In this document: piece by piece, positions 13,809 through 51,263 of the stretch
How positions within the stretch are numbered: the stretch's first letter is position 1
How the letters are laid out: every line of letters starts with the position of its first letter
Position numbers and translations under genes: made by a program
IMG/VR virus record: IMGVR_UViG_3300032053_000040
Span: 13,292-77,291 of that record
Length of the DNA: 64,000 bases
Source of the DNA: a virus
Reading direction: 5' to 3' (one strand)
The notes under the pieces: generated by a model
Seen by the model: only the letters and a program-made list of their open reading frames with translations
What the model was told of the DNA's origin: nothing
Database searches by the model: none

Positions 13809-13827
13809 CTAATTTTGGAGTGATTTC

Positions 13828-15508: not shown

Positions 15509-17524
15509 TTGAATATGTGGGAGGAATTCCTCTCGGATAGGTATTATCCGAAAGTCTTGGATCTAGCCGAGCATTTCCCGGACAGACGTAGCCTTTACGT
15601 TAACTTCCGGGACGTCGAGATATTCAACCCGGAGATGGCGGATCGTATCCTCGAATCGCCACCACAGGAACTCAGTGATGCCCAAACAGCTCTGCGCTCG
15701 GTCGACCTACCGCTTGACGTAACCTTCGATGAAAACACGTTTCTTCGTATCCTCAACCTCCCCTTAACCCAACGATACCGTGCCAGCCAGCTCCGAGCGG
15801 AACACGTCGGCAAACTAATAGCTATCGAGGGCATGGTCCGGACGGCGACGGAGATCCGGCCTAAGATAGTCTCAGCGATGTACAGGTGCCAGAGGTGCGG
15901 CCAGGAGTTCTTCAAATCTCAATCCGGCTTCCAGTTTGACGACAAGAACATTCGTTGCGACAACGATGCCTGCGATAGGGCCGGTCCCTTCAAGTTACTC
16001 CTCGACCAGAGTCGTTTCATCGATGCCCAACGGTTGCGTCTGCAAGAATCCATCGAGGATATAGGAGCCCGATCCATCCCCCAGATCCTGGAGATAGAGG
16101 CCGAAGGAGACATAGCAGGCACAATAAACCCCGGCGACCGCGTAATAGTCAACGGCATAATCACCTCGTACAGGAAACCAGGCAATATTGCCCTATCGAA
16201 CTACTTCGAACTCTACATGAAAGTTGTCTCAATCGAGATGGAAGAACAAGAATATGAAGAGATAGACATCTCCATGCAGGACCAGGCCGAGATCCTGAAG
16301 CTGGCCCAAAAAGGAGACGTCCTCGCCCAGTTCAGGCAATCAATAGCTCCTTCAATATACGGAAACGATGTCATAAAGGAGGCCCTCTCCCTTCAACTCG
16401 TTTCCTCGCCAGAAGTCAAGAACTTTGACGGAACAGTCAACCGGGGCGACATCCATGTCCTACTCGTAGGAGATCCTGGTGTAGCCAAGAGCCAGATGCT
16501 CAGGTACATGGCAAAGATATCTCCCCGGGGCCTCTACACCTCCGGCAAAGGCACCACGTCGGCCGGGCTCACTGCGACCGCAGTAAAGGACGAGCATGGC
16601 GACGGTCGCTGGACTATAGAAGCCGGCGCTCTCCCCCTATCCGACCGGGGCATCTGTTGTATAGATGAAATGGATAAGATGAACGAGAAAGATAGAGAGG
16701 GGCTACACGAGGGCATGGAGCAACAAACCGTAAGTGTCTCAAAGGCAGGCATCTCCGCGACTCTACGTTGCCGCTGTTCCGTCCTGGCCGCTGCGAACCC
16801 TACTGCCGGAAGGTTCGATCGAGCCGGCATAATAGCCGACCAGATCAATCTCCTCCCCACGCTCTTGAGTCGTTTCGACCTAATTTTTATCTGCCTGGAC
16901 GTGCCCGACAAAGACCAGGACCGCGAACTCGCTGATCATATCCTGAACGTGCGAACCCATCCGCAATCCAAAGCTCCCGTCATAGAACCGGCGCTCCTTC
17001 GCAAATACATAGCCTACGCAAGGAGAAACATCTTCCCCGAACTCTCGGAAGAAGCCGGAAAGGAGATCAAAGAGTTCTGGCTGTCTTTGAGGGGCCAGTA
17101 CGGGGGCAAACCCAACCAGCCCATTCCAACGACTGCGAGACAACTCGAAGCTCTCTACAGGCTGGCATCCGCGTCTGCAAGGCTCAGACTCTCTGCGACT
17201 ATCGATGGCCAGGATGCCAAGAAGGCAATCGACCTGACGGAATACTGCATGAAACAGGTCGGAGTCGACCCGGAGACCGGCCTGTTCGACGTAGGCGTGA
17301 TAGACCTGGGAACTCCCAAGACGGAATCGGACAAAACGTTAGTCGTAGAACGCATAATCCGAGAACTAGGTCGGCAATCCCAGGGCAAAGCAGCCGAAGA
17401 GGAGATCCTGGCAGCAGCCTTCCAGCAGGGTATAGACGAGGACCGAGCCAGGAATATCATCTCCAGGATGAGGAGGGATGGGCGATTGGTTGAGCCACGA
17501 AACGGGTTCTACTCGTTTCCATAA
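15509..17524 (+). CDS. mcm: Archaeal-type MCM replicative helicase
   Basis: Zn finger CQRC...CDNDAC, Walker A GDPGVAKS, Walker B IDEMDKM, Arg finger SRFD, C-terminal wHTH. Confidence 0.97.
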   Translation: MNMWEEFLSDRYYPKVLDLAEHFPDRRSLYVNFRDVEIFNPEMADRILESPPQELSDAQTALRSVDLPLDVTFDENTFLRILNLPLTQRYRASQLRAEHVGKLIAIEGMVRTATEIRPKIVSAMYRCQRCGQEFFKSQSGFQFDDKNIRCDNDACDRAGPFKLLLDQSRFIDAQRLRLQESIEDIGARSIPQILEIEAEGDIAGTINPGDRVIVNGIITSYRKPGNIALSNYFELYMKVVSIEMEEQEYEEIDISMQDQAEILKLAQKGDVLAQFRQSIAPSIYGNDVIKEALSLQLVSSPEVKNFDGTVNRGDIHVLLVGDPGVAKSQMLRYMAKISPRGLYTSGKGTTSAGLTATAVKDEHGDGRWTIEAGALPLSDRGICCIDEMDKMNEKDREGLHEGMEQQTVSVSKAGISATLRCRCSVLAAANPTAGRFDRAGIIADQINLLPTLLSRFDLIFICLDVPDKDQDRELADHILNVRTHPQSKAPVIEPALLRKYIAYARRNIFPELSEEAGKEIKEFWLSLRGQYGGKPNQPIPTTARQLEALYRLASASARLRLSATIDGQDAKKAIDLTEYCMKQVGVDPETGLFDVGVIDLGTPKTESDKTLVVERIIRELGRQSQGKAAEEEILAAAFQQGIDEDRARNIISRMRRDGRLVEPRNGFYSFP

Positions 17525-36807: not shown

Positions 36808-37356
36808 ATGGGCGTAAACGAGGATCTGGATGCGCGGGATGCGGCATTATGCAAATGTGGTGACCTTCCTCATCCAGAATGCCCCCTGCATGGAGTCGGG
36901 TCTGAGTTGGGCCACCAAGACCAACAAGACGGTGGGGTGATATCTGAATTAGAGGAGCAAATCCAGGTAGTCAGGGAAGCCAGGAACCGCTTCTCCGTCG
37001 AGAAGTCTAGCCTGGATGCTGCTAGATTTGTCTGGGAGGAAGGGAATCGCTCCCAAATCGAGCTAGTCGATAGCATCAAGGTCGCTCTCCAGGCAGAGGA
37101 AAACAAGCTTCGGGAGATGACGATTGGGGTATACTTCTGGACAAAAAACAAGAAGCCAGCTCCCGGCGTAGGGATCAGGCTCGTGAAGATCTTCAATTAC
37201 GATACAGAGAAGGCCAAATCCTGGGCAGTTGAGCATAACTTCACGAATTTGCTGGATCTAAACGCGGCCAAGTTCAAAAAGGCGGCAGAAGGCTTATCCC
37301 TGGATTTCGTGGACGTAGAGGAGAAACCGACCGCAACCATAGCCGAGGTCCTATGA
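36808..37356 (+). CDS. Coiled-coil protein, possibly Gp157/Gam-like
   Basis: Helical N-half and GVGIR...YDTEKAKSWA. Confidence 0.4.
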   Translation: MGVNEDLDARDAALCKCGDLPHPECPLHGVGSELGHQDQQDGGVISELEEQIQVVREARNRFSVEKSSLDAARFVWEEGNRSQIELVDSIKVALQAEENKLREMTIGVYFWTKNKKPAPGVGIRLVKIFNYDTEKAKSWAVEHNFTNLLDLNAAKFKKAAEGLSLDFVDVEEKPTATIAEVL

Positions 37357-37674
37357 ACCGCTACGACTCAATCCTGGCCGGCCTGCAATGTCTCACAGAC
37401 CGGCAGCTATCTTCTCTGGTCCTGGAGATCCGGGCGGAGCAGATGAGAAGAGAAGACGAGAAACACGTCCTGGCCGTGGAGCACTATCTGTCAAAACCGA
37501 AAGAGGCAACGGCATGAAATTCGAGGCCAGGATCAAACGCAAAGGCTACACCCGGATCATAACACTCAATGAAGCCAACGAGCACGATGCCATGATGGAG
37601 GCTGCACAGAAGGGACGTGTCCTGTGGATCAAACAAGTACATTAATATCCGATAAACCAATATTTATTTCCGTG

Positions 37675-37740
37675 GGCAGCGTCCGTCAAGGCGGCGCAAG
37701 GCCGGTTCGAATCCGGCGGCTGTCGTGGCCCAGAAGGGCC
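37675..37740 (+). ncRNA. Mini tRNA-like element (acceptor and T arm, no anticodon arm) plus a downstream hairpin
   Basis: GGCAGC/GCTGTC stem, CCGTC/GGCGG hairpin, GCCGG-TTCGAAT-CCGGC T arm, GGCCC/GGGCC. Confidence 0.6.
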
Positions 37741-37753
37741 AAGGTGACAAAAA

Positions 37754-38332
37754 ATGGAAGCAATAGAGAGCTTCATAGGCCAGCTAGGCGAGCTGGAAAA
37801 GATGGGACGAGAGGTAGAAGGAATACTGACGGCCACGATAGACCAGGAGACCGTCATCCTCGATAGGATAGTCGAAAATCTCCTCCCGATGATGAGGTTC
37901 ATGGACTACAAAATCCAGGTACACGGACACTCGATAGGCTATCAAACGAAAGAGTGGCTGTACGAATATTCCGAGGAGAAGGGGCTGATCCTGGTTAACA
38001 ATACCAAACAGCGTTCTGATGATAGGGACAACAGAGGGTGGTACGAAGGGGATATCCTCGTGCTGACAAGATCAGGCAAGTTTATTCTTTTCACCCAGGA
38101 AGGCGATTGGTCACGGTGGCAGGGGGAGCATAGCCATTTCAACAATACTGCGACCGACATGGATACCAAAGCTGCCATAAAACGCTATAGCCTTCAGGAA
38201 ATTGTAAAAGGCCTGAACGAGTCCTTCAAGGAGGCAGTCGAAAAGGCCAACAAGAAGAAAGCGATGCTGAACAGCCGCATGACCCAGCTCCAGGCAATCG
38301 AGAATATCCTTGCGGGAAAGGAGAGTGCATGA
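37754..38332 (+). CDS. Hypothetical protein
   Basis: 192-aa ORF with AGGTGA SD. Confidence 0.65.
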   Translation: MEAIESFIGQLGELEKMGREVEGILTATIDQETVILDRIVENLLPMMRFMDYKIQVHGHSIGYQTKEWLYEYSEEKGLILVNNTKQRSDDRDNRGWYEGDILVLTRSGKFILFTQEGDWSRWQGEHSHFNNTATDMDTKAAIKRYSLQEIVKGLNESFKEAVEKANKKKAMLNSRMTQLQAIENILAGKESA

Positions 38333-38679
38333 GCATGGCAAAACCATTCCGGCAGCTCACAAGAGCAGAAAAGGAAAAGATAGCACAGGCCAGGGAGTTA
38401 TACAAGAACTTCCTGGACGAGGACGAAGACACGAAGGGAATACTCGACAAGATCTACGGAGCCGGGAAATGGCACGCGCTATTCGATGCTCAAAGAAGGG
38501 CCCTGTGGAGGACCGGACGGGAGATGAAGTGGGAAGGCCTCATAAGCCACTGTCGAGACTGCAACGACTTCTGGAAATTCACAGCAGAAGAGACTCTGGA
38601 AGTCACAGACAACGACACGTTCTACATGGGGTTGGGGTCAGTAGCTCCCCCTTAATTCCCCCTCCATTTTTGAGGTCTC

Positions 38680-39477
38680 ATGGAAAAATGTGATCGTTGC
38701 GGCGATCCAGGCGCATCCTTCGTGGAGACGGATCCGGAGTGCCGGCTGGGTATCTTCATGTGCCCAAAGTGCAAACTATGGTGGGATAGTGAAAAGCGTG
38801 GTGAAGCTATATCGAGATACATTGTAATAGGCAGCTCCCCGTGGTCAACAAAAGTTTATCAAGAGACGATCTGCACGTTTCCTGGTGAGTGGTATTTCCT
38901 AGATGCCCCCGATCTTGACCACCTCAGATCAGTGAAACCGTCTCTGGTTTTCTTCCTCCACTATTCCAAAAAGGTTCCTGACGAAATCGTAAATGGCTTC
39001 GAATGTGTCTTGTTTCATATGACAGATGTTCCGTTTGGTCGTGGAGGCAGTCCTCTCCAAAACCTGATAACCAGAGGTCTTCGGAAGACAAAGCTCACAG
39101 CACTGCGGATGACAAGCGACTTCGATGCTGGCCCCGTCTACCTTCAAAAAGATCTTTGCCTAGAAGGGAACGCAGAGGAGATATACCTCCGAGCAACACG
39201 TCTTGCAGCAGAAATGATCAGGCAAATTTCTCTCGAAAGGCCTATTCCGAGGCTACAAACCGGAGATGTAACAGTATTCAAAAGACGCAGGCCTGAAGAA
39301 AGCCAAATCTCTACGGCCTCTTCTCTACTGGAACTACACGATCACATTCGTATGCTCGATGCTGAGGGGTATCCTAAAGCCTTCATAGATTTCGATGGGT
39401 TTAGGTTTGAGTTCAGCCGTGCTGCTCTCTATAGCGATCGGATAAAAGCCGACGTGGAGATCAGAAAGTTTATATAG
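38680..39477 (+). CDS. Formyltransferase (Fmt-like, sugar N-formyltransferase type) with N-terminal Zn ribbon
   Basis: FHMTDVPFGRGGSPLQNLI...DFDAGPVY...IRMLDAEGYP. Confidence 0.88.
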   Translation: MEKCDRCGDPGASFVETDPECRLGIFMCPKCKLWWDSEKRGEAISRYIVIGSSPWSTKVYQETICTFPGEWYFLDAPDLDHLRSVKPSLVFFLHYSKKVPDEIVNGFECVLFHMTDVPFGRGGSPLQNLITRGLRKTKLTALRMTSDFDAGPVYLQKDLCLEGNAEEIYLRATRLAAEMIRQISLERPIPRLQTGDVTVFKRRRPEESQISTASSLLELHDHIRMLDAEGYPKAFIDFDGFRFEFSRAALYSDRIKADVEIRKFI

Positions 39478-39503
39478 TCGTATCCTGAACAGATATCAAG
39501 ACG

Positions 39504-40172
39504 ATGTTCGAATCTCCGGAGAGAGTACTCGTCGTCGCAGCGCATCCCGATGATGAAGTTCTTCTTTGTGGTGGATCTATCGCTAAACTCTCAGAGCGTG
39601 GCTCATCTGTAAACATCCTTTTTCTCTCAACTGGCGCGGTCTCTCGCACAGGCGATTTTTCAGAGGTAAACATTCTGCAAAACTACGCAATCGAAGCCAG
39701 CAAGATTCTTGGATCAAGTATCTTATCATTCGACTCTTTTCCCGATAACGAGATGGATTCCCTACCACGTTTGGATATCATAAAAAAGGTAGAATCTTTT
39801 ATAAATCACGTAAGACCGCAAGTCATATTCACTCATTATCCTGGTTGTGCAAACATCGATCACAGACGCACATGCGAAGCAGTTATGATCGCCACCAGGC
39901 CCTGGAAAGAACGGATCAACGTCTTTGGAGGATCGGTCTTGAGCAGCACGGCCGTCCTCTATCCGTCTGAGTGGAGTCCGCAATTCTTCGTTCACCTCTC
40001 GAAAAGCCACGTTAAAAAGAAGCTTAAAGCTCTATCAATGTACATCTCCGAAACCGGGCCTATGCCTCATCCACGATCAAAAGCTGCTGTTTTATCAGAT
40101 GCCATACTGACTGGCTCGAGGTGCTATTCAAAATATGCAGAATCTTTTATGGTCTTAAGGGAGCACTGGTGA
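39504..40172 (+). CDS. PIG-L/LmbE family N-deacetylase
   Basis: VLVVAAHPDDE...FTH...DHR...KKKLKAL...AESF. Confidence 0.92.
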   Translation: MFESPERVLVVAAHPDDEVLLCGGSIAKLSERGSSVNILFLSTGAVSRTGDFSEVNILQNYAIEASKILGSSILSFDSFPDNEMDSLPRLDIIKKVESFINHVRPQVIFTHYPGCANIDHRRTCEAVMIATRPWKERINVFGGSVLSSTAVLYPSEWSPQFFVHLSKSHVKKKLKALSMYISETGPMPHPRSKAAVLSDAILTGSRCYSKYAESFMVLREHW

Positions 40173-41140
40173 TGGATCTCGACGGAGCAAACGTACTGAT
40201 AACTGGTGGAACAGGGACATTCGGTCGAGAAGCCTTAAAACTCCTCCCCCAGTTCAGGCCTCGCCGGCTAATCGTTTTGAGTCGGGACGAGTATAAGCAG
40301 CATTATCTTCAGAAAGAGTTTCCAGAAAACGATAGCTCCATATATCGCTATATTCTTGCAGACGTCCGGGATAAAGATAAACTCTCAGTTGTGACTCGTA
40401 ACGTTGACGTCATCTTTCATGCAGCGGCACTTAAGCAAGTTCCCTTCTGCGAGACGAACCCCGACGAAGCCATCCAAACCAACGTATTAGGTACGAAAAA
40501 CGTTTGCGAAGCCTCCATGAAGAACGACGTTGACTCTTTGATATTCGTCTCCTCGGACAAAGCAGTAGAGCCAGTAAACCTCTACGGAGCTACCAAGATG
40601 GTAGGGGAGCGGCTAGTGAACCAGTACAACTTCAAGTCCGACCACACGAAATTCTTCACAGTCCGTTACGGGAACGTTTTCAACAGCCGGGGCTCAGTAG
40701 TGGAACTTTTTCACCAGCAAAAAAGCGAAGGGGTTTTGACGTTAACTCATCCAGACATGACGAGGTTCTTTTTCCTCATCCAAGATGCCATCTTGTTTGC
40801 GGCTGGCGTAGGCGGTGCAGGAGGAGAAATTTTCGTTCCGGCGATGAAATCCATGCGAATATGTGACCTAGCAAAAGCGATCGCTCCTGAAGCAGAGATC
40901 AAGATCATATTAAGGCGTCATGGCGAAAAGGTTCACGAAAAGCTTATCTCTTCCGACGAAGCGGACAGGACAGTATTCAAAAATAATAAATATATAATTC
41001 TTCCAAATGACAGGAGGTTCAGTTTCTCGAGATATAATAATTCTCCCAAACAAGAAGGTCTTATCTACACGTCCGATCGCTGCTGCATGGATCTCGATGG
41101 AGTCAAAGAATTCTTAAGAAATCACGACAGAAATATATAA
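40172..41140 (+). CDS. pseB: UDP-GlcNAc 4,6-dehydratase (PseB/FlaA1-like)
   Basis: TGGTGTFG, SRDEYKQ, HAAALKQVP, SSDKAVEPVNLYGATK, VRYGNV..SRGSV, MTRF. Confidence 0.9.
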   Translation: MDLDGANVLITGGTGTFGREALKLLPQFRPRRLIVLSRDEYKQHYLQKEFPENDSSIYRYILADVRDKDKLSVVTRNVDVIFHAAALKQVPFCETNPDEAIQTNVLGTKNVCEASMKNDVDSLIFVSSDKAVEPVNLYGATKMVGERLVNQYNFKSDHTKFFTVRYGNVFNSRGSVVELFHQQKSEGVLTLTHPDMTRFFFLIQDAILFAAGVGGAGGEIFVPAMKSMRICDLAKAIAPEAEIKIILRRHGEKVHEKLISSDEADRTVFKNNKYIILPNDRRFSFSRYNNSPKQEGLIYTSDRCCMDLDGVKEFLRNHDRNI

Positions 41141-41193
41141 ATACAAACAATGACATACAAGATACCAACTAAAATTAAAAAAGGTGATGGGCG

Positions 41194-41901
41194 GTGGCTA
41201 AAGAAAAGAGACCTATAAAATATATCGAAGGCTACTCCGAAAGCCTCTGGAAATCGCTAGTCGTCAAATCAATCCGGATGGGGTGGATAAATGGCCTGGT
41301 GGAAGCTGAAAAAAGGCTTCCCAAATCTACTATACAGAGGTTCTTAATCAGCGGTATATTTGAAGATCTATGGCCTCATCCAAGCGAAATATGGGCAGCG
41401 ATAGATATGGCGAACCGTGGGGATTACGCAGGTCTCTTGAGCATAGACCCCCACCATGGAAAAGGTCTCTCTGAAACGTACTGCAATTATCACCCAACGT
41501 CGGACGAGTATTGGTACAACAACCGTGAGTTTATATTCGAGAAGCTGAAAGAAAATCTCCCGGGCCTCTACGTGCCCACAAATTCGTTAGGGAACGCTCT
41601 TAACTGGATGGTCCATAAACATCTCATCCCCCAAAAATCGCGAACGCTGGACGAAACCCCATTTAGAGGCATCCCTCCAGCATTCGCCGATCAGCACACG
41701 CCAGAGGGATGGGAAAGAAAAACCCCCTTTACTCTCCTCTGCGGCCATCCCAAAAGCCATCGCATGCTGGGCTCGCAAGTGCAAAAGATTGGATGGGATG
41801 GCATCAGGCGTCAGGTTCATTCGGAAGGGATCCTGCCTAAAAAAGAAACACTCCCCCCAACAACAAGGCAAGGCCAGCAGACTCTCATGGTGTTTTTCTA
41901 A
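41194..41901 (+). CDS. Stand-alone MgsA/RarA C-terminal-like domain protein
   Basis: SLVVKSIRMG...IFEDL...IPPAFADQHTPEG resembles SALxKSIRxG/EDIG/DxHTxxG; no Walker motifs. Confidence 0.5.
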   Translation: MAKEKRPIKYIEGYSESLWKSLVVKSIRMGWINGLVEAEKRLPKSTIQRFLISGIFEDLWPHPSEIWAAIDMANRGDYAGLLSIDPHHGKGLSETYCNYHPTSDEYWYNNREFIFEKLKENLPGLYVPTNSLGNALNWMVHKHLIPQKSRTLDETPFRGIPPAFADQHTPEGWERKTPFTLLCGHPKSHRMLGSQVQKIGWDGIRRQVHSEGILPKKETLPPTTRQGQQTLMVFF

Positions 41902-41902
41902 A

Positions 41903-43078
41903 ATGCTCAACGAAGAACCAAAAGAAGTGCTCTGGCTCGTGGCCGGAAACGAAGAAAATGAAGGTATGATACCGATCATGGAGAAATACAGAAGCCTCTC
42001 AAATCTCCTCAACACCAGGCACGTTCTTGTTACTAATTCGAAAAACTATAATATTTTTCAGGGGTCAACTTATTTTTTCGATCCGGGAACTAAGCAACTC
42101 AGCCTTCCAGAGAAATATAAATTTCTAGTTAATATGGCAGATATGCACGGCCTATTCGATTCGGCTGATATGATGGTTATAGGTGGGTTCTATCCAGTAG
42201 TGCTTATTATGGCGTATGCTATTGATTGTAAGATGACCTCGAAAACAAGAAAGTTCTGCACCAAACCGATAATAGTAATGAACCCCAAAATCCCCGAAGG
42301 AGAACTATCCGACATTAATCCGATCTACCTCGATCCTTTCTGGTGGATGTTAGGGCATTACGATAACATTACTCTTGCAGTCGGCCAGCTCAAAAACGAG
42401 ATGTATCTTGCTAAAAAGTATCTCCTCAAGTTCTATCCTCGTGCTAAAGTGAAGCAAACGCTGCTGCCCTTCGTAGAATATACCTACGATGATAGTCCCT
42501 GGTCTGAAAAGGAAGACAAAGTAATCTGGACAGGAAGGTACAATTCTCTTAAACAACCGGATCTGGCACTGAAGACGCTTGTGCTCTTGGAATCAGTTGG
42601 AATCAAGACCGAGATGTACGTCCCTACTGCAAAAGCATCAAATACCGGCAAGGTACGAAAGGCACAGAAACTTCTTTCCGAAGTCAATATCAACTTAGAT
42701 AGAGAGAGCTTCTGGCAAAAAGCTGGTTCTGCAAAGGTCATCCTTATCACCCCCTTGATAGAGGGGTTTGGAACAGGCATGATGGAAATAATCAGTCGGG
42801 GAGTTATACCTGTTATATGGGGCGCAAAATGGAACAGAGATTACATCTCCCCGGACGAGGATTGGCCTCTGGTATTCAAGTTGCCTGGAGAGGGTGCTGA
42901 GATGTGTAAACTTGCCCTCAAAGATTACGATTACTATGCACGCCTTCTGAGAGATAACTTAAAGAAGCGTTACTCAAGGGGGTACGATTGGGAGTTCTTA
43001 TTAAAAGGCGTTTGGAAGTCGCATATCAACGGCAGGCATAGCGAAGAGTTCTCATTAGAGTATAAAATTTATGACTAA
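41903..43078 (+). CDS. GT-B glycosyltransferase (GT4-like), divergent
   Basis: WTGRYNSLKQP and E-x7-E motif EGFGTGMME..SRGVIPV. Confidence 0.8.
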   Translation: MLNEEPKEVLWLVAGNEENEGMIPIMEKYRSLSNLLNTRHVLVTNSKNYNIFQGSTYFFDPGTKQLSLPEKYKFLVNMADMHGLFDSADMMVIGGFYPVVLIMAYAIDCKMTSKTRKFCTKPIIVMNPKIPEGELSDINPIYLDPFWWMLGHYDNITLAVGQLKNEMYLAKKYLLKFYPRAKVKQTLLPFVEYTYDDSPWSEKEDKVIWTGRYNSLKQPDLALKTLVLLESVGIKTEMYVPTAKASNTGKVRKAQKLLSEVNINLDRESFWQKAGSAKVILITPLIEGFGTGMMEIISRGVIPVIWGAKWNRDYISPDEDWPLVFKLPGEGAEMCKLALKDYDYYARLLRDNLKKRYSRGYDWEFLLKGVWKSHINGRHSEEFSLEYKIYD

Positions 43079-43760
43079 AAATAATAAAGCAGCCCAAGAT
43101 ACGTATCTCTCGCTGGAAGAGATAGATCTGGATCTTGTAGACGACAACGAATTGTCTGTAAACGAAGAGGATGATCACACGTTCCAGCGTTTGAGAGACG
43201 AAATCAAATCGCGTGGAATGGTAGACGTCCCGACCGTTCGGCCTATCGAGGGGGGTAGATATAAGGTTCTCGGCGGGCGTCATAGACTAGCGGCTTCAAG
43301 GGCAAATGGTAACAAAAAAGAACACGTAGTTGTCTACCGTAGAGCCATAAAATCCAAGGAAGACGAATTCAACCTCGTCAACAACCTGAACGCCATCAAA
43401 GGCACTCTCCGCAAAGGGAGCATCCTGAAAGTTATCAAGCAGCAGAACCTCGATCCCACGAAGCTCGATATACATAAAATGCCTTATGATCTTCTGATGC
43501 CTGTGATAACTAGCGAGGATTTCGAATCCATCCAGAATGAAGCCCAACGTAACGCAAAGATCAACGCCATGTCCCTCTCGATAGCGAAAGAGATTGCAGC
43601 TACGCTTATAGACGAGAGGGACGAGCTCCTCTCTTTCATGGTCGTCAAGGACAAGCCGGTCGCAGTGATCCGCATCCCCTTCCAGAGTTCGAAAGAGGCT
43701 CGGGAGAAGGCGAACTCTTTGAAAAACATAATCCAGAAAGCCCTGGAGGGCATAATTTGA
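43071..43760 (+). CDS. ParB/Srx-like N-terminal domain protein
   Basis: LRDEIKSRGMVDVPTVR...YKVLGGRHRLAA...NLNAIKG. Confidence 0.85.
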   Translation: MTKNNKAAQDTYLSLEEIDLDLVDDNELSVNEEDDHTFQRLRDEIKSRGMVDVPTVRPIEGGRYKVLGGRHRLAASRANGNKKEHVVVYRRAIKSKEDEFNLVNNLNAIKGTLRKGSILKVIKQQNLDPTKLDIHKMPYDLLMPVITSEDFESIQNEAQRNAKINAMSLSIAKEIAATLIDERDELLSFMVVKDKPVAVIRIPFQSSKEAREKANSLKNIIQKALEGII

Positions 43761-44467
43761 AAGTGTTCATGAACCAGCCCAACTATCTGCCTTGGTATGG
43801 CTTCATGGGCATGATGTCTCAAGCTGACGTCTTTCTTGTGATGGATGAGATCCAGTACGAAAAAGAGGAATGGCAGAATCGCAACAGGATCACAAGCAGC
43901 AACCCCAAAAGGTGGGAATGGATTACCGTTCCTGTCAGCGCCTCATCGAAATCCAAGATCTCAGAAGTGTCTTCGGTTGGAGCGTGGCGCAAGCAGCACA
44001 TAAGTCAAATCCACCACGCCTATAGCAGAGCAGCCTATTATGAGTGCGTCTCAGGGGATATCTATTCTGCTATATGGGGATCTACAAACTCTTTGCTAGA
44101 TATCGATATGAGGTCAACGAAAACTCTAATGGAGGTCTTGGATTTCAAACCGGATATCAAGTACATGTCCGATCTAGGATGCACCTCCAAAAACCAGCAG
44201 CTTGTCCAGGATCTAGCCGGTTCGGTAGGCGCTGATCAGATTATCGTCCCGAAGAACGCATTGAAATATTGGGATCTCTCTAAGAAGACTAGCCAAGATC
44301 TGTTGATCCACGAATTCCCAGATATCTCTTACAAGCATTTAAATATCTTCGTGCCAAGATTATCAGTAATAGACATGCTATTCAATCTAGGCCCGAAGAC
44401 CAGCAGGAATCTCATCATGGACTACGAGAAGTATGCCATAACAGAGGTAATTCATGGAACCGGCTGA
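43757..44467 (+). CDS. WbqC-like protein
   Basis: QPNYLPWYG, WQNRNRI, WITVPV, LSVIDMLFNLGP. Confidence 0.92.
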   Translation: MKVFMNQPNYLPWYGFMGMMSQADVFLVMDEIQYEKEEWQNRNRITSSNPKRWEWITVPVSASSKSKISEVSSVGAWRKQHISQIHHAYSRAAYYECVSGDIYSAIWGSTNSLLDIDMRSTKTLMEVLDFKPDIKYMSDLGCTSKNQQLVQDLAGSVGADQIIVPKNALKYWDLSKKTSQDLLIHEFPDISYKHLNIFVPRLSVIDMLFNLGPKTSRNLIMDYEKYAITEVIHGTG

Positions 44468-45083
44468 ATATAGTCAGGCTCTCAGGGAATTTAGTGATGA
44501 TCCCAGGGCGGTAGGGTACAACGGTCCTCAGTCCCAGGATCTCATGTTCTCAAGGTTCCTTCAGCTTTTCAAGTTTGAACGAGATCAAATCCGTGTTCAT
44601 GAAGTGGGATGCGGATTATGCCATTTCAAGGAATACCTGAAAAACAGGCGAAGAGTTCTCTACTCTGGCAATGATACTCTCAGGGATATGGTCGTCTTCT
44701 CCAGACAGAAGCACCCGGAAACTGCTATTTATCACGGCCGCTTACGGGACAATCTCCAATTTCTTTATACGGATTACGTGGTTGCCATCACGACCTTCAA
44801 CGAATCACCAAAAGAGGAGTTGCTGGATGAGCTGCAAGTTATGTACGCGGCCGCTAAAAAGGGGATTGCCTTTGATTGCTTCTCAAGTTACGTCGATTTC
44901 ATAGATAAGAAGATTACTTATATAGACCCTGCGGAGATGCTATCTTTTTGTCTCCAAACCCTCTCCAGGCATGTTTTTTTAGATCACAGCCTCCCCAACT
45001 ACAGATATGTGGTCTTTGTCTACAAACCTGCTTTTATTGATTCGATATATCCTAATAAATCACAATATTTTGCAAAAAAATAA
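44454..45083 (+). CDS. Class I SAM-dependent methyltransferase
   Basis: VHEVGCGLCHF...DYVVA..TFN...KGIAF..FSSYVDF. Confidence 0.85.
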   Translation: MEPAEYSQALREFSDDPRAVGYNGPQSQDLMFSRFLQLFKFERDQIRVHEVGCGLCHFKEYLKNRRRVLYSGNDTLRDMVVFSRQKHPETAIYHGRLRDNLQFLYTDYVVAITTFNESPKEELLDELQVMYAAAKKGIAFDCFSSYVDFIDKKITYIDPAEMLSFCLQTLSRHVFLDHSLPNYRYVVFVYKPAFIDSIYPNKSQYFAKK

Positions 45084-45098
45084 CTGAGCGTGTTATGA

Positions 45099-45752
45099 AT
45101 GGAACCAGAAAAAACACCACCGGGACAAGTTGCTAAGAAGTACACTCTGATAGTTAACGGCGAGGAGATGCTTCTACACGATCCGTCGCCAGAGGTTGTG
45201 GAGAGCCTACGTGCCTCGGGACATGAAGTCAGGGAAGAGGTAATCGCTAAGAAGCCGAGGTTCTCCAAGATCACCTCGGAGATAAAGGGGAGGCTTCTGG
45301 AGTTGCTCGCTTTGGGGAATACATTTATGCACTCTTGTAACGTGTTGGACGTCTCTCCGTCTTACATAATCGAGTACAGGGCCAAATATCCTGCTTACGA
45401 TGCCAAAGTCCGAGCAGCGATGAAGACCCAGCAGGCTGCTATGGCAGATGCTCTGTACACTACTGGAGTCGGCGGTAACGTTACTGCCCAGATATTTTTC
45501 CTCGTGAACCGCACCAGGTTCTTAAGGAGCAGCGATCCTGACAAGTGGATGAACACCCAGAACATCGAAGTTAGCGGGCCAGGGGAAGGGCCACTTGAGC
45601 TAATGTTTCTCTCGCCTGAAGAACGGGAACGCCGAATATTAGAGCTTTTGGATAAAAAAGCAAAGGATCTGCCCGGGGCTTCTGTGCGACCCAAGTTCCG
45701 TGAGCTGGCAAAAAACAAAAAGAACACGAAAAATGGGGCTAAAAGAGGCTAA
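45099..45752 (+). CDS. Terminase small subunit
   Basis: HTH plus GNVTAQIFFLVNR...DKW...IEVSG..EGPL; directly upstream of TerL. Confidence 0.85.
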   Translation: MEPEKTPPGQVAKKYTLIVNGEEMLLHDPSPEVVESLRASGHEVREEVIAKKPRFSKITSEIKGRLLELLALGNTFMHSCNVLDVSPSYIIEYRAKYPAYDAKVRAAMKTQQAAMADALYTTGVGGNVTAQIFFLVNRTRFLRSSDPDKWMNTQNIEVSGPGEGPLELMFLSPEERERRILELLDKKAKDLPGASVRPKFRELAKNKKNTKNGAKRG

Positions 45753-45772
45753 AAAGAATCGAAAGATGAAAT

Positions 45773-47329
45773 TTGGTTGCGAGTTTGAAACAACCGACCG
45801 CGAGTAAAACTTCCATGGCCGCTTCAACGTGTAAACAATCCTCTCTGAATAATCCATACACGTTGAGTTTACTCCAGGAAGACGAGAAGTACCAATCCGA
45901 AGAGCACCTTCTAAATTTCACGACTGTTGCCTGGCCCATAATAAACCCGGCCACAACGTTTCTCCCCAACTGGCATATCGAATTGATCTGCGAATATCTG
46001 ATGGCCGTGACTCTCGGCGAGATCAAACGCCTAATAATAAACATCCCGCCAAGGTACGCGAAAAGTACCCTCGTAAGCCAGATGTGGCCGTGCTGGGAGT
46101 GGCTCCATATCCCATCCCAAAGGTGGGTGTTCGCAAGCTATGCCTCCGACCTGTCGGTCCTGCAAAGCATAAAGCGCAAAGACATCATCCTCTCTGATTG
46201 GTACAGGATGAACTGGTCTGAAATAGTAAAGCTCCGGGAAGATCATAATAGGAAGGCCGATTTCGTCAGTACAAAGAAAGGAGCTATGTACTCGACCTCA
46301 ATCGGCGGCCAGGTAACGGGTATGGGTGGCAACCGGCTGGTTATCGACGACCCCACGAGCCCTCAAGAGGCCGAGTCAGAAGCAATGAGGGAGATGGCGA
46401 ACACCTGGTACTCAAATACGTTCCAATCTCGTCTCGATGACAAACAAACAGGATCTATAGTCCTAATCCAGCAGAGGCTCCACCAGAACGACATGACTGG
46501 ATACCTCACTGGCTTGGACGTCATGGATCTAAACAGTCATGTGCTCGAGGGAGAAGGCTGGACGTTACTAAGGATCCCGCTCATCTCCGAGCAGGACGAG
46601 GACATCTATTCGCCTATCGGCAACAAGAGGCTCATAGTATCCCGCAAAGAAGGCGATCTGCTCTGGCCCGAACGAGAAGGCATGGAGCAGATCAAGGAGT
46701 ACCAAAAGTTTGAGTACATTTTCGCTTCGCAACAGCAGCAACGCCCCTCCCCCAAGAAAGGCGCGATGTTCGAACGAGATTGGGTGCAGCAATACGATCA
46801 CCTCCCCCCCGATATAGAAGCCTATATTATGTCAATAGATGCCACCTTCAAGGGCGGTCCCAAGTCGGCTTTTGTGGCAATCCAGGTTTGGGCTTGGAAG
46901 AGACCGAACATGTACTTCGATTACCAGGTTAGGGAGAAGATGAGTTTCACCAAAAGTCTCGACGAAATAATCAACGTGCTCGCTCTTTATCCTGGTCTCA
47001 CTTCAAAATTGATAGAAGAAGCCGCAAACGGCGATGCCATAATCGACGTGCTATCGGAGAAGATCGGGGGGATTGTGCCTGTTCGCCCCGTCGTTTCAAA
47101 AGAGTCACGGGCTTCATCCGTTACCCCCCTTTTCAGGTCAGGCAACGTCTACGTTAAGAAAGCTCCCTGGACACACGCCTTCATAAACGAACTGCTGAAC
47201 TTCCCAGGCTCAACGTACAAAGACCAGGTAGATGCCATGAGCCAGGCCATATATTACATCCAAGAAGTGTTCGGAGGTCTCGGGAAAGAGAAACGAGCTC
47301 TGTTCGCTTTCGGGAGAGCCATACGATGA
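45773..47329 (+). CDS. Terminase large subunit
   Basis: INIPPRYAKS, LVIDDP, QQRLH..D, SID, IEEAANG, DQVDAMSQA. Confidence 0.96.
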   Translation: MVASLKQPTASKTSMAASTCKQSSLNNPYTLSLLQEDEKYQSEEHLLNFTTVAWPIINPATTFLPNWHIELICEYLMAVTLGEIKRLIINIPPRYAKSTLVSQMWPCWEWLHIPSQRWVFASYASDLSVLQSIKRKDIILSDWYRMNWSEIVKLREDHNRKADFVSTKKGAMYSTSIGGQVTGMGGNRLVIDDPTSPQEAESEAMREMANTWYSNTFQSRLDDKQTGSIVLIQQRLHQNDMTGYLTGLDVMDLNSHVLEGEGWTLLRIPLISEQDEDIYSPIGNKRLIVSRKEGDLLWPEREGMEQIKEYQKFEYIFASQQQQRPSPKKGAMFERDWVQQYDHLPPDIEAYIMSIDATFKGGPKSAFVAIQVWAWKRPNMYFDYQVREKMSFTKSLDEIINVLALYPGLTSKLIEEAANGDAIIDVLSEKIGGIVPVRPVVSKESRASSVTPLFRSGNVYVKKAPWTHAFINELLNFPGSTYKDQVDAMSQAIYYIQEVFGGLGKEKRALFAFGRAIR

Positions 47330-48465
47330 CCCGGGAAACTTTTTTGCCTTATGCACGACAGAAGATTGAGGAAGATGACATCCGGGCCGTGAACGAAGTT
47401 CTAAGATCGGATTTCATAACAACTGGCCCGAAAGTAATAGAATTTGAAGAATTTTTCTCAGATGTAGTCGAAGCGGAATATGCAGTCAGTTTCAGTTCCG
47501 GGACAGCAGCACTCCATGGGGCCATCTACGCTGCAAATATCGCAAAGGACGATGAAGTTGTGACCTCTCCGCTAAGTTTTTGCGCCACCTCAAATTGCGT
47601 TCTCTACCAGGGAGGACGCCCACTCTTTGCAGACGTAAGTTATGATACACTCAATCTTAACCCCAACGAGGTTGCCGATTTAGTCTCTACAAGAACCAAG
47701 GCCATCTTAGCAGTGGATTATGGAGGCCATCCCGCAGATCTGGATAGTTTAGCTCAAATCGCGGAAGATTCCAATCTTCTTCTGATAGAAGACGCATGTC
47801 ATGCCCTCGGAGCCAAATATAAGGGAAAACCAATTGGCGGAATTAGTGACATGACAATTTTCTCTTTTCATCCGGTAAAACATATAACAACTGGAGAAGG
47901 AGGGATGGTTACAACCAACGACTGTGATCTTGCAAGACGTCTGACTCTTTTTAGGAACCACGGAATAGGACTTGATTTTAGGCAACGAAACCTGATAAGA
48001 ACGTGGAAATACGAAATGACCGATCTCGGATATAATTACAGGTTGACTGATATCGCATCTGCGCTTGGCATCTCCCAACTACGCAAACTCCCCGAAAATT
48101 TAAAACGTCGTCGGGAGATAGCAGCCATCTATAATAACGCATTTCAAAAAATACCGGGTCTGGTGTTGCCGAAGGAGCGATCGAACTCGATCTCGTCCTG
48201 GCACCTCTATCCTGTTAGGTTCGATTTCAATATTATAAAATCGTCTCAATCAAGAATCTATTCGGACATGCACGCCGAAAACATAGGCGTTAACGTTCAT
48301 TATATTCCGATTTATGAACATCCATATTATAAAAATCTAGGTTATTATAAAAAATGTTCTGTAGCGGATGCCGCTTATAAATCAATCGTCTCTTTACCGA
48401 TGTTCCACGGAATGACAGATTTTGATGCGGCAGATGTGATAGAGACATTAAAAAATGTGATTTAA
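47326..48465 (+). CDS. pseC: DegT/DnrJ sugar aminotransferase (PseC-like)
   Basis: SSGTAALH, IEDACHALG, FSFHPVKHITTGEGG, GYNYRLTDI. Confidence 0.9.
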   Translation: MTRETFLPYARQKIEEDDIRAVNEVLRSDFITTGPKVIEFEEFFSDVVEAEYAVSFSSGTAALHGAIYAANIAKDDEVVTSPLSFCATSNCVLYQGGRPLFADVSYDTLNLNPNEVADLVSTRTKAILAVDYGGHPADLDSLAQIAEDSNLLLIEDACHALGAKYKGKPIGGISDMTIFSFHPVKHITTGEGGMVTTNDCDLARRLTLFRNHGIGLDFRQRNLIRTWKYEMTDLGYNYRLTDIASALGISQLRKLPENLKRRREIAAIYNNAFQKIPGLVLPKERSNSISSWHLYPVRFDFNIIKSSQSRIYSDMHAENIGVNVHYIPIYEHPYYKNLGYYKKCSVADAAYKSIVSLPMFHGMTDFDAADVIETLKNVI

Positions 48466-48483
48466 ATCAGAGAGGTTAAAAAT

Positions 48484-49164
48484 ATGGTAGCAAGAATAGA
48501 AATAGAAGAGATCAAGCCACCAAGGCACGTATCTGATCTCAGGTGCAGTCCCTGCCCAGTCGGAGAAATAATTCGCCCACACGCGCATCACATCAGCGAG
48601 CCCTGGCGCAGTCCATGCCTATCCAAAGAAACGAGGGACCCACACACGCACACGCACCAAGTCAACACGCTTTGGCAGGTTAGTGACGGCAACTTTTATG
48701 TTGCTCATCCCACGCAACCGATAAAGGATCTCCCCGTAAAGCTCGAGGTAGGCGTTAGGCCATCCGGTCTGACTGAGATCCACACGCAGAAGATTATGTT
48801 TGCGGCAGGGATGTTCCCTCACCCCTATCAAGAGAAGCGAAGGATAGTACGATGGTTCAACGTGGCACGACTAAATGAGCTCCCAAGAGACTACCTAAAC
48901 GGACGCGGGCCCAGGTATTTCGAAGATGATGGCAATGTAACCCTCAATTGGCCCACTCCAAATAGTTTACTATGGCCAATTAAGACAGTGATTCTTCACG
49001 AAGGGATGATCCTGTCAGAAGAAACGTACCAAGAAGTTCTCCATTGGATGCGGTGTGCCGGCGCCAGGCTCGGAGCAATACAGAAGAGGGAGAGGCAAAA
49101 GCAAGACGAAAAGCCCAAGGACATCCCAAAACCGCTCGAACCTACCTACGTGGACATAATTTAA
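48484..49164 (+). CDS. Hypothetical protein
   Basis: 226-aa ORF with SD GAGG. Confidence 0.6.
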   Translation: MVARIEIEEIKPPRHVSDLRCSPCPVGEIIRPHAHHISEPWRSPCLSKETRDPHTHTHQVNTLWQVSDGNFYVAHPTQPIKDLPVKLEVGVRPSGLTEIHTQKIMFAAGMFPHPYQEKRRIVRWFNVARLNELPRDYLNGRGPRYFEDDGNVTLNWPTPNSLLWPIKTVILHEGMILSEETYQEVLHWMRCAGARLGAIQKRERQKQDEKPKDIPKPLEPTYVDII

Positions 49165-49224
49165 GTAGTCCCATCTCACAAAATATGGCATCAGACGCTG
49201 AAAAACAAATCTTAATGAACCGGA

Positions 49225-51042
49225 GTGGGGGCGATAGAAATTGTAGCAAAAGCAGCATCAAACAAACCAGCTAAGTTAAGGTCATCAAAACGAACTGATT
49301 TCCCGCTGATCAAATCTTTTTTCTCGAGATCCAAAGGCGGATCGGAGATCCTGGCGATCCAGGAGATCATAGGTAAAGGCATCCGAGAGTTCCTGATCAC
49401 GGAGATCTCACCAGAGAACAGGTTTGCCTTCTATCGGTCGATGGAATCGTTAGACCCAGAGCTACTGATCGCCAGGAACTATATCTCTCTGATGATCCAC
49501 CGAAATTTTCTCGGCATGGCACTCGACACAGTGGATCCGTCCTATATGCCTTCACCCGATTTCCTTGCCCGCGTGAACTCAATCCTGGCCGAACTCAAGT
49601 TCACTTCGAAACTGTTCCCTCTGATGAAAGATTTCGTCCGGGGCAATGCGTTCGCTAGGATAATCAGAAGCGACGTAGACAACCATATCAAAGATGTCGA
49701 GATCCTGCCGGCCGATTCAATAACGATAGTCTCCGAGGAGTTCACGACCACAAAGAAGAAGAGTATCCTGATCACCGAGGCGGATTATTACATAATTAAC
49801 GAGCAGAAGGACGTTAACAGAGAGAAGTATCCTATCGATCCCAACCGCGTGGAGGGGCCAGAGGTCGAGAATGATGAGATCTTGCCTGAAATAATCCTCT
49901 CTCCCGCGAACATGATTCATTTTGCCTGGGATGCAGAAGCCAACGCTTGCAAGGACAAGTTAGGCCGAGACACGTATAACATCTGGGGCAAATCGCCTTA
50001 CGACTCGATTGTAGTCTACGTAAAAGCCAAACTGATGATCATGACCGACTACCTACGATGGGTCCGTATGGGGATCCCGAGGTGGACGGCAAGCGTAGAC
50101 ATGTCCCTCTTGAGCGATCTTAATCAGTATACCGGGACAGACGACGAACGAGTAGTTCTGGCGGAAAGGCAAGGCAAGGAGCTCTTTGACAAGATTGAAG
50201 AGAGTTTCTACTATCTAGACCAGGACGAAGAGAGCCCGACTTTTGACAAGAAACTACCTGTCGAACCGGATGCTATATTCTTCCATACCAGCGATCTCAC
50301 ATTCGAGCAGAAGGGCGGCGCCAACTCTCCAGACGTCCAGATCCTCGGTATAACGCAGGAGTGCAATAGGGCGATAGCTTCGGCAATGGGCGTGCCGATG
50401 TCGTTGCTAGGTTATGAGGAAGGCTCCACCTATGCGATTGGTCGTGTTACTTCTCGGTTCACAAGTGGCATAGGCGGAGGGCTCCTAAGATCACTCGAGG
50501 ACACCCTCATCACGTTCCTGAAACGGGAGTTCACTCAACGAGGCTGGGCAACGTCTCCCAAAGACTGGGATAACCTCTACACGGACTACGAGCGCGACGA
50601 TACTGAAGAACTCATGGCCGTCCAGGCGGCTGAGACTGCCAAGGCAACGGCGATCAACTCTATAGCGACGGCTGCCAGGACGTGTTACGAGGGTAGCTTG
50701 CTGACCAAAAACGAGTCCCGGGCCCTGCTCAGAGACGGCCTGTCATCTCTCGAAGGCCTTCCGGACGTCGTGGGCGGAGATGAGTTCAAACCCTTGCAGC
50801 CCCTCGTCTCTCCCTCGCCGAACTACTTCATGCCGGCCGTAGAGAGGTCGAACCAGCCCCTATCCGGCGACGTCCAGCCCGGCCAACCCGGATCCGAGCC
50901 GGACCATCCGACCCTCCCCAAGGATCAGCCCTCTATGGAGGCGGGCGTCAAGGCCGGTCTGCTCGATAGCTACACCTGGTTCATCGAAGAGGTTGCCAGG
51001 AAAGCCGAGGAGGGGAAACTTCAACCACAGTCGAAGGGGTAG
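49225..51042 (+). CDS. Portal protein
   Basis: GNAFARI...LPADSI...MIHF...WGKSP...IASAMGVPMSLLG; synteny. Confidence 0.88.
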   Translation: MGAIEIVAKAASNKPAKLRSSKRTDFPLIKSFFSRSKGGSEILAIQEIIGKGIREFLITEISPENRFAFYRSMESLDPELLIARNYISLMIHRNFLGMALDTVDPSYMPSPDFLARVNSILAELKFTSKLFPLMKDFVRGNAFARIIRSDVDNHIKDVEILPADSITIVSEEFTTTKKKSILITEADYYIINEQKDVNREKYPIDPNRVEGPEVENDEILPEIILSPANMIHFAWDAEANACKDKLGRDTYNIWGKSPYDSIVVYVKAKLMIMTDYLRWVRMGIPRWTASVDMSLLSDLNQYTGTDDERVVLAERQGKELFDKIEESFYYLDQDEESPTFDKKLPVEPDAIFFHTSDLTFEQKGGANSPDVQILGITQECNRAIASAMGVPMSLLGYEEGSTYAIGRVTSRFTSGIGGGLLRSLEDTLITFLKREFTQRGWATSPKDWDNLYTDYERDDTEELMAVQAAETAKATAINSIATAARTCYEGSLLTKNESRALLRDGLSSLEGLPDVVGGDEFKPLQPLVSPSPNYFMPAVERSNQPLSGDVQPGQPGSEPDHPTLPKDQPSMEAGVKAGLLDSYTWFIEEVARKAEEGKLQPQSKG

Positions 51043-51263
51043 TCGATGCCCAAGCCGAACGAAGATGCCAGGAAGTCAAGCCCCGGGGCGTGGCTCTATA
51101 AGAACTACGAGCTCTACCATGCCAGGGCGTTGGTACTCGAAATCTTCGGTCGTACCTTCTCTGATGTCGCAGCCGTTCGGTATTACAGACGTTATGTAAA
51201 ACGAGAACCCGCATCATATGCCAAACGAAGCAGGACGAACATGCTAAAGAAAGCCTGGTTAAC

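Follow-up and report, generated by a model that had tools for sequence, protein, structure and literature searches.

The 64,000-nucleotide stretch analyzed here (the window) comprises bases 13292 to 77291 of the 77,291-bp IMG/VR virus record IMGVR_UViG_3300032053_000040, which has direct terminal repeats and is rated complete. At its terminase genes, the window carries a cassette that combines a glycosyltransferase (GT), a ParB-like protein, and a protein resembling the C-terminal part of RarA (RarA-C-like) with enzymes predicted to supply and tailor an amino sugar (Table 1). The cassette is a genuine feature that is conserved and specific to viruses, and its chemistry is reasonably constrained. 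In the literature searched, no paper was found describing a module of GT, ParB-like, and RarA-C-like proteins. We tentatively regard it as an accessory sugar-transfer cassette with viral DNA as the target. The more specific proposition is possible but rather doubtful: that an archaeal virus attaches a tailored 2,4-diamino-2,4,6-trideoxyhexose to its own DNA, without a hydroxymethyl- or hydroxy-pyrimidine intermediate, and that a ParB-like nucleoside triphosphate switch and a RarA-C-like adaptor guide the GT.

Conserved gene order around the glycosyltransferase

With the GT as the query, viral and metagenome collections yielded 16 contigs besides its own, 15 of them with sequence downstream of the GT gene. 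In all 15, a ParB-like gene followed directly (within approximately 100 bp) and, where the contig extends, was itself followed by the genes for the small and large terminase subunits (TerS and TerL). A RarA-C-like homolog precedes the GT in most loci, including those of the L028, L029, and L064-L066 subgroup. The TerL of the L028 subgroup is not detected by the TerL of this virus, yet the order RarA-C-like, GT, ParB, TerS is kept there. When the ParB-like protein was the query, the GT lay directly upstream in 11 of approximately 14 informative loci; in L069, two unknown open reading frames (ORFs) of 267 and 142 amino acids separate the RarA-C-like gene from ParB. The GT was thus never seen without ParB, and ParB can occur without the GT.

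Several other enzymes recur around this core. A PIG-L gene together with one or two WbqC genes was found in L026, L032, L037, L038, and L042, and a gene for a class I S-adenosylmethionine (SAM) methyltransferase immediately precedes the GT gene in L041; in L037 and L042, it is placed between the RarA-C-like and GT genes. The sugar-nucleotide genes vary: PseB-like, PseC, and Fmt-like genes in this virus, UDP-sugar dehydrogenase and epimerase genes in L026, and epimerase and GDSL hydrolase genes in L028, L029, L065, and L066.

When 1.84 billion cluster representatives were searched exhaustively with HMMER, 42 members of the GT family were returned at an E value of ≤0.001. Among the cellular genomes of 185,579 species (one genome per species) there was a single match, on a 4.5-kb contig that itself bears ParB and TerS genes. 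The family is therefore virus-specific and all but missing from cellular genomes. The earlier note on this DNA had raised the possibility that a host glycan locus was recently captured; this does not fit the picture, as the GT-ParB-TerS order is kept across divergent viruses and the GT is virtually noncellular. Among cultured phages, tblastn found no close GT homolog, nothing useful was obtained with the GT or RarA-C-like protein as the query, and only the ParB-like protein led to a related system, in Rhizobium phages; megablast with the 9.8-kb region found no close relative.

As a separate observation, in L057 (TerL, 56% identity) the place of the sugar cassette upstream of ParB-TerS-TerL is taken by an anaerobic ribonucleotide reductase gene, NrdD, containing an intein (positions 45 to 1946).

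Fold and family of the glycosyltransferase

The AlphaFold2 model of the GT (predicted local distance difference test [pLDDT] score, 89) has a GT-B fold with two Rossmann domains and is GT4-like. The best Foldseek matches were the GT4-type retaining enzymes PglH, MshA, BshA, GlgA (glycogen synthase), LmbT, PimA, and WbnH, with E values of 4e-12 to 1e-9 for PglH, MshA, BshA, PimA, and GlgA. The protein carries an E-x7-E motif (EGFGTGMME) and a GR....K motif, of which the second Glu and the Lys are invariant across the family, and PF00534 is matched by 8 of 28 family members. The best viral fold matches include actinophage GTs of approximately 480 to 500 amino acids and giant-virus GTs, and DNA-glycosylating GT-B enzymes, namely, that of phage HY126 (9iqz) and annotated DNA alpha- and beta-GTs, stand lower in the structural list. 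The comparison proposed in the earlier note, T4-type DNA GTs versus GT4 enzymes, placed this GT nearest the GT4 type but did not separate acceptor classes: DNA, lipid, protein, and small-molecule acceptors are not told apart by Foldseek.

Predicted sugar supply and tailoring

PseC scores above the cutoff of its family (Table 1). The best NCBIfam match of the PseB-like protein is TIGR03589 (PseB) at 309.5 bits, under the cutoff of 407.75, and its stereochemistry is not assignable. In the complete 77-kb genome, neither NeuB/PseI (PF03102) nor the CMP-sugar synthetase PseF (PF02348) was matched at an E value of ≤1, and Pfam and NCBIfam scans of the cassette proteins revealed no PseH or PseG. Because only the first two steps toward pseudaminic acid appear to be encoded, ending at the UDP-hexose level, the product should be a derivative of UDP-4-amino-4,6-dideoxy-N-acetylhexosamine (UDP-4-amino-4,6-dideoxy-HexNAc) and not a nonulosonic acid, in agreement with the earlier suggestion that it is not pseudaminic acid.

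The tailoring enzymes are assigned with different degrees of precision. The N-terminal Formyl_trans_N match of the Fmt-like protein is weak (E value, 0.0023), and ArnA and Fmt are distant matches. Formyltransferases usually have an Asn-His-Asp triad; in our own reading of the Fmt-like sequence, the His and Asp are kept and the Asn position is occupied by Leu. Methanogens use methanopterin cofactors in place of folate. Given this Leu and the methanopterin of methanogens, the formyl donor may not be N10-formyl-tetrahydrofolate. The PIG-L protein is closest to BshB1 and BshB2, with BshB1 as its best NCBIfam match (E value, 5.6e-16, below the cutoff). No BshC/MshC-type Cys-adding enzyme was found among the cassette proteins with Pfam and NCBIfam, and a WbqC protein is present instead. 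The WbqC family was first named from O-antigen clusters, according to its Pfam description; no solved structure and no informative literature were found for it, and its biochemistry is uncharacterized. The methyltransferase has a direct Pfam match at an E value of only 0.028, and its 26%-identical homolog in L038 matches Methyltransf_25/12/31 at approximately 1e-11.

ParB-like and RarA-C-like partners

The ParB-like protein matches ParB_N at 22.6 bits, below the cutoff, and TIGR00180 at 21 bits against a cutoff of 58. A profile of its family, searched against the PDB, matched the N-terminal domains of ParB/Spo0J/Noc proteins with an E value of 2.5e-8, followed by SbnI (3.5e-4) and SerK (0.23). 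Only profile positions 5 to 99 match ParB structures, the C-terminal half giving nothing significant. In the motif G(R/H)HR..A, residues G69, H71, R72, and A75 are invariant in nine sequences. No ParA partner was seen among the scanned ORFs. A second ParB-fold protein of the same genome, in which ParB_N is fused to an N6/N4 DNA methylase, is encoded at window positions 10906 to 12195.

The RarA-C-like protein has no direct Pfam match to PF12002 (MgsA_C), but its homologs in L028 and L029 match MgsA_C with E values of 1e-10 and 2e-6, and an alignment with them contains the common motifs KS.R.G, ED, and D.HT.G. The five top structural matches of its AlphaFold2 model (pLDDT, 89) were all C-terminal fragments of MgsA/RarA, with low Z scores of 3.4 to 4.3, and Foldseek found nothing in the PDB at an E value of ≤0.001. 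A protein atlas assignment as a terminase RNaseH-like domain was rejected; the two have few features in common, and neither fold nor sequence supports it.

Proposed mechanism and the case for DNA as the acceptor

By homology, the PseB-like protein and PseC would turn host UDP-N-acetylglucosamine (UDP-GlcNAc) into UDP-4-amino-4,6-dideoxy-HexNAc, the GT4-like transferase, of the retaining type, would use the nucleoside diphosphate sugar, and the PIG-L/LmbE, WbqC, Fmt-like, and SAM methyltransferase proteins would be present for tailoring of the amine. Characterized PIG-L/LmbE enzymes (MshB, BshB, and PIG-L) deacetylate GlcNAc already joined to an aglycone. Because the family acts on such sugars, the transfer would come first, removal of the 2-N-acetyl group next, and redecoration of the freed amine last. 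The ParB-like and RarA-C-like proteins would bring the transferase to its target or activate it there, a role suggested by the conserved gene linkage and by precedent. The target would be the replicated DNA of the virus itself, at limited sites and shortly before packaging, through an attachment chemistry that dispenses with the known hydroxymethyl- or hydroxy-pyrimidine acceptors.

Several findings favor DNA. The GT family is rare, a ParB-like gene adjoins the GT gene in 15 of 15 contigs, the GT, ParB, WbqC, and methyltransferase genes overlap in sequence, and GT-B enzymes that glycosylate DNA are among the structural matches of the GT. Both constant partners of the GT are assigned to DNA-associated families (a ParB nucleoside triphosphate-binding domain and a probable RarA/clamp-loader lid-type domain), the sugar-supply genes differ between viruses while this core stays constant, and the same genome joins ParB_N to an N6/N4 DNA methylase. 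In the related virus L005, the genes immediately upstream of a ParB-like gene before TerL encode a protein with DAM-like and GNAT-like parts and an MT-A70 methylase. Phage ParB-like proteins are reported to activate thymine dioxygenases on double-stranded DNA (PMC13229309), the commonest neighbors of phage 5mYOX genes are GTs, ParBs, and terminases (PMC13229309; bioRxiv 10.1101/2023.12.21.572611), and ParB folds in phages are frequently fused to DNA methyltransferases (PMC12704722).

The following points weigh against DNA. All known O-glycosylation of DNA needs a hydroxyl group from a TET/JBP enzyme or a thymidylate-synthase homolog (PMC13326640), and neither TET/JBP (PF12851) nor thymidylate synthase (PF00303) was matched in the present complete genome (G000), in the complete genome G002, or in Rhizobium phage RHph_TM16 (MN988459). 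The earlier remark that the window has no hydroxymethylase or TET enzyme thus holds for the whole genome. As neither type of enzyme is present in the three genomes, no known DNA acceptor group appears to be made, and one of the numerous ORFs that lack annotation may encode a novel enzyme. The GT4-like fold is generic, and the enzymes that match it best have lipid-linked glycans or small molecules as their substrates. Several palindromes are far below expectation (observed versus expected: CTGCAG, 2 versus 17.6; CAGCTG, 2 versus 17.1; ATGCAT, 1 versus 13.6; and CCGCGG, 0 versus 8.2), which points to pressure from specific restriction systems. This avoidance argues against a blanket protection of the DNA, and so opposes the anti-restriction idea of the earlier note in the form of a genome-wide coat; it fits a modification that is sparse or confined to particular sites, or a target other than DNA. 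The cassette is also accessory and dispensable, since a close relative, L003, has cleanly lost its core, from the Fmt-like gene through ParB, including the RarA-C-like and GT genes, together with the first approximately 190 codons of WbqC. Finally, ParB occurs without an adjacent GT in L057, with the intein-bearing NrdD upstream, and in L068, with only a RarA-C-like gene upstream, and a hot spot for insertion in front of a ParB-TerS unit may account for part of the GT-ParB linkage. The ParB-TerS pairs of L057 and L068, which lack the transferase, qualify the earlier generalization that ParB-like genes near terminases often accompany modification enzymes.

Other palindromes in the whole genome (G000) also deviated from expectation, with AGTACT, CGTACG, and CTAG depleted and CCGG overrepresented (343 versus 255 expected).

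One protein was considered as a base-activating enzyme, DUF5131 (Gp37/Gp68), which has a C-x8-C-x2-C motif and is classed, by family, in the radical SAM superfamily (PMC9477430). Its gene lies at window positions 13828 to 14871, at L028 positions 382 to 1119, and at L005 positions 72 to 419, and the protein is one of only four common to the complete cassette-bearing genomes G000 and G002, lying 1.1 kb from the cassette in G002 and 27 kb away in the present genome. It is missing from the other, mostly short, loci, and with its distance here it was kept as a lead only; it is a possible candidate for preparing the acceptor.

A natural deletion variant

The genes flanking the deletion in L003 are 96 to 100% identical to those of the window. 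By blastn, window positions 36941 to 38498 correspond to L003 positions 6965 to 8531 and window positions 44331 to 51186 to L003 positions 8527 to 15407. L003 keeps the 3′ third of WbqC as a remnant, along with the methyltransferase, TerS, TerL, and PseC genes, and the WbqC remnant identifies its state as a deletion. The full cassette was found in at least three sediment samples, apparently of one campaign, of which X1 (which may be the source sample), X2, and X3 gave identical contigs, and X4 contains a diverged form; the material consists of contigs assembled from short-read sediment metagenomes. A possible further deletion joint in X2 (39572 to 44078), with just 23 bases at one of its sides, was not relied upon.

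Identity between the window and L003 is mosaic (MuF, 100%; portal, 99%; TerL, 82%; and the 226-amino-acid protein unk226, 64%). L003 has a 1.5-kb insertion between portal and MuF genes (positions 15407 to 16916) that is absent at window position 51186/51187, and the window has additional segments at approximately 30401 to 32119 and 35345 to 36558.

Other candidate acceptors

Proteins are an unlikely alternative to DNA. The GT would O-glycosylate virion or packaging proteins in the cytoplasm (capsid, portal, tail, TerS, or the ParB-like protein itself), placing a glycan on the particle, and late coexpression would explain the position of the genes. The cassette indeed lies in a one-strand block with the terminase, portal, and MuF genes, its GT has viral structural matches that include the actinophage GTs of approximately 480 to 500 amino acids and the giant-virus GTs, it is dispensable, and no DNA acceptor-making enzyme of a known type is encoded. 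Phage-encoded soluble GTs that glycosylate virions are established for mycobacteriophages and chloroviruses and provide a precedent. However, no capsid or tail gene lies consistently beside the GT gene, whose constant neighbors are ParB and TerS, and a protein acceptor would leave the constant company of the GT with ParB-like and RarA-C-like proteins unexplained.

Remodeling of a host glycan, which appears improbable, would have the soluble GT place the amino sugar of the virus on a precursor linked to dolichol or undecaprenol at the cytoplasmic face, after which host flippase and oligosaccharyltransferase would export it and the sheath, S-layer, or archaellum would be changed, for example, to block superinfection. 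The earlier note had set lipid-linked glycans aside on the grounds that no transmembrane segment or flippase is encoded. No transmembrane-like segment was found in any cassette protein outside a Rossmann core, but the argument does not exclude such an acceptor, as PglH, PglA, and WbnH are soluble or peripheral proteins, stand among the top fold matches of the GT, and perform such reactions without transmembrane segments. PseC is nearest to proteins of Methanosarcinales/Methanothrix (60 to 63%), which means that this sugar chemistry exists in the host lineage; WbqC was named from O-antigen clusters; and the retention of PseC and the methyltransferase alone in L003 is sensible only if host enzymes finish the pathway. 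Prophage enzymes that alter surface pseudaminic acid have been described (PMC12053666), a precedent for such a change. Against a host glycan stand the near absence of the GT from cellular genomes (one match in 185,579 species, on the contig with ParB and TerS), the lack of an integrase among the genes scanned, and the linkage to ParB and RarA-C-like genes, which it leaves unexplained.

A small soluble glycoconjugate like bacillithiol or mycothiol, with the ParB/Srx-fold protein acting as a kinase (as SerK and SbnI do) that prepares the acceptor, is very improbable: MshA, BshA, and LmbT are among the top fold matches of the GT, the PIG-L protein is closest to BshB1 and BshB2, and the ParB family has weaker matches to SbnI and a serine kinase, but the ParB profile matches ParB/Spo0J/Noc far better (2.5e-8) than SbnI (3.5e-4) or SerK (0.23), no Cys-ligase homolog is present, and there is no obvious cause for the tight linkage to TerS in many viruses.

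Comparison with known systems

Among described systems, DNA glycosylation as tentatively proposed here would be nearest to phage clusters for postreplicative hypermodification of DNA, namely, those with ParB-dependent thymine dioxygenases (5mYOX clade C1; PMC13229309) and the 5mYOX/ThyS-linked DNA GTs (bioRxiv 10.1101/2023.12.21.572611; PMC13326640). Common to these systems and the present cassette are a short ParB-like protein, in which a nucleotide-binding domain is joined to a C-terminal part and no helix-turn-helix is recognizable, the combination of a GT with sugar-modifying enzymes, frequent proximity to terminase genes, and accessory status. The present cassette differs in having no 5mYOX or thymidylate-synthase homolog (three complete genomes), in its rare GT4-like family and additional RarA-C-like partner, in its amino sugar with deacetylase, WbqC, and methylase tailoring, and in its probably archaeal host.

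In the bacillithiol (BshA-BshB-BshC) and mycothiol (MshA-MshB-MshC-MshD) pathways, as predicted here, a GT4 enzyme adds a HexNAc, a PIG-L/LmbE enzyme deacetylates it, and the amine is then acylated; MshA and BshA are among the best fold matches of the GT, and BshB1 is the best NCBIfam match of the deacetylase. Unlike in those pathways, WbqC stands in the place of BshC/MshC, the donor is further modified (4-amino-4,6-dideoxy), and the linkage to ParB, RarA-C-like, and terminase genes has no counterpart there. With the pseudaminic acid pathway (PseB, PseC, PseH, PseG, PseI, and PseF), the cassette would have the first two steps in common, through PseC and the PseB-like dehydratase, and the later ones are missing.

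The closest analog in a cultured virus is a stretch of Rhizobium phage RHph_TM16 (EVB27_120 to EVB27_128) that encodes an epimerase/dehydratase, a DegT aminotransferase, a GT, a ParB-like protein, a small protein, and TerL. This phage has a ParB-like protein of the subfamily found here (hhalign probability, 98%), and the C-terminal domain of its GT is related (88%), whereas EVB27_120 has only a weak motif match to the RarA-C-like protein (21%). ThyA and TET/JBP are absent there as well. RHph_TM16 differs in being a bacterial phage of 101 kb with a longer GT (491 amino acids) and with no PIG-L or WbqC annotated in the stretch. A search for publications on its DNA found none, and the region is annotated and not studied. 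A second Rhizobium phage, RHph_Y1_11, is likewise a cultured carrier of an analogous cassette. The present cassette contributes a probable archaeal host, the splitting of the PseB-like/PseC/Fmt-like supply across the terminase genes, a natural clean deletion variant, and the relation that the GT implies ParB and not the reverse.

If DNA is the target, sugars would be attached to DNA without the two known base-preparing routes, and this would be a new DNA attachment chemistry common to a widespread family of viruses that infect bacteria and archaea, as well as the first sugar hypermodification of DNA in an archaeal virus. The GT would then be a third kind of client enzyme for ParB-like activators, beside the thymine dioxygenases of phages, and hypermodification would extend to viruses of methanogens, which would be relevant to methane cycling in sediments and digesters. 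We know of no cultured Methanothrix virus. If the acceptor is instead a virion protein or a host glycan, the cassette would still be an undescribed, widespread module for glycosylation by viruses, in which the sugar supply can be swapped. These possibilities are testable thanks to the constant core of three genes, the naturally occurring deletion variant, and the cultured Rhizobium phage with an analogous cassette.

Cassette layout and probable host

All genes named in the earlier note were found on the + strand at or near the positions first called for them, by Pfam, NCBIfam, PHROG, and homolog searches. Two starts were revised: the GT gene begins at 41903, correcting 41789, and the likely start of the PseB-like gene is the ATG at 40172, not the opening of its ORF at 40121. 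Overlaps of 4 to 14 bases join GT to ParB, ParB to WbqC, WbqC to the methyltransferase, and TerL to PseC; the ATGA reported earlier, in which the stop of TerL overlaps the start of PseC, is real, and the other three overlaps suggest coupled translation. The cassette heads the operon of packaging and structural genes. The protein unk226, encoded between PseC and the portal gene, has no match in Pfam, PHROG, NCBIfam, or Atlas, and its neighbors are 97 to 99% conserved in L002 and L003.

Table 1. Positions in the window of the cassette genes, the segment missing from L003, and the MCM helicase gene
Feature	Position	Strand	Evidence or remark
Fmt-like protein with N-terminal Cys4 zinc-ribbon-like segment	38680..39477	+	PF21553 Formyl_trans_C_2, 85 bits
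PIG-L/LmbE-family de-N-acetylase	39504..40172	+	PF02585, 83.5 bits
PseB-like UDP-GlcNAc 4,6-dehydratase	40172..41140	+	Polysacc_synt_2, 288 bits; ORF opens 40121
MgsA_C (RarA C-terminal)-like helical protein, 235 amino acids	41194..41901	+	Homolog motifs, weak fold matches
GT4-like GT-B glycosyltransferase	41903..43078	+	AlphaFold2 model, Foldseek, motifs
ParB/Srx N-terminal-domain protein, C-terminal half unassigned	43071..43760	+	ParB_N, E value 1e-4
WbqC-family protein	43757..44467	+	PF08889, 165 bits
Probable class I SAM methyltransferase	44454..45083	+	Via L038 homolog; motif I-like VHEVGCGLC
Terminase small subunit (TerS)	45099..45752	+	phrog_309, E value 1.8e-10
Terminase large subunit (TerL)	45773..47329	+	phrog_38, E value 3.6e-95; Terminase_6C
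PseC-type UDP-4-keto-6-deoxy-HexNAc aminotransferase	47326..48465	+	TIGR03588, 455.7 bits (cutoff, 423.5)
unk226, 226-amino-acid protein between PseC and portal; cassette membership uncertain	48484..49164	+	64% in L002/L003
5.8-kb segment absent from L003	38499..44330		blastn, tblastn map
MCM helicase, full-length	15509..17524		Closest cellular relatives 53-55% identity over full length

Every credible gene of the genome is on the + strand, and its content, including baseplate J protein, portal, MuF, TerS, TerL, and MCM helicase genes, is that of a tailed virus. The virus occurs in sediment metagenomes. The named cellular proteins closest to its MCM helicase are all from Methanothrix, Methanosaeta, or Methanotrichaceae; the best named cellular homologs of PseC are from Methanosarcinales/Methanothrix (60 to 63%), with Acidobacteriia scoring about equally; and TATA-like boxes of the TTTAAATA type are present in several intergenic regions. 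Judged from these relatives and boxes, this is probably a tailed virus of a Methanothrix-like methanogen, an archaeal host. No CRISPR or provirus link to a host was obtained, and no integrase was seen in the genes scanned.

Several further features of the genome were recorded. A relative of the MCM helicase (P0049; 96% identical; 1,027 amino acids) bears a LAGLIDADG domain, a sign that the viral MCM may have an allele with an intein. A tRNA-Ala (GGC) was called at window positions 27302 to 27388; its 87 nucleotides exceed the standard length, maybe because of an intron or wrong bounds. A 184-amino-acid protein with a CxxCxxCC zinc/iron-chelating domain (E value, 2.6e-5) is encoded at window positions 22699 to 23253, and a small, homing-endonuclease-like protein with HNH_3 and AP2 domains is encoded upstream of the cassette at 35546 to 36040. 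Outside the window, at genome bases 1059 to 2270 (L024), the viral genome carries a TnpB/Cas12f-like gene with OrfB_IS605 and Cas12f1-like TNB domains.

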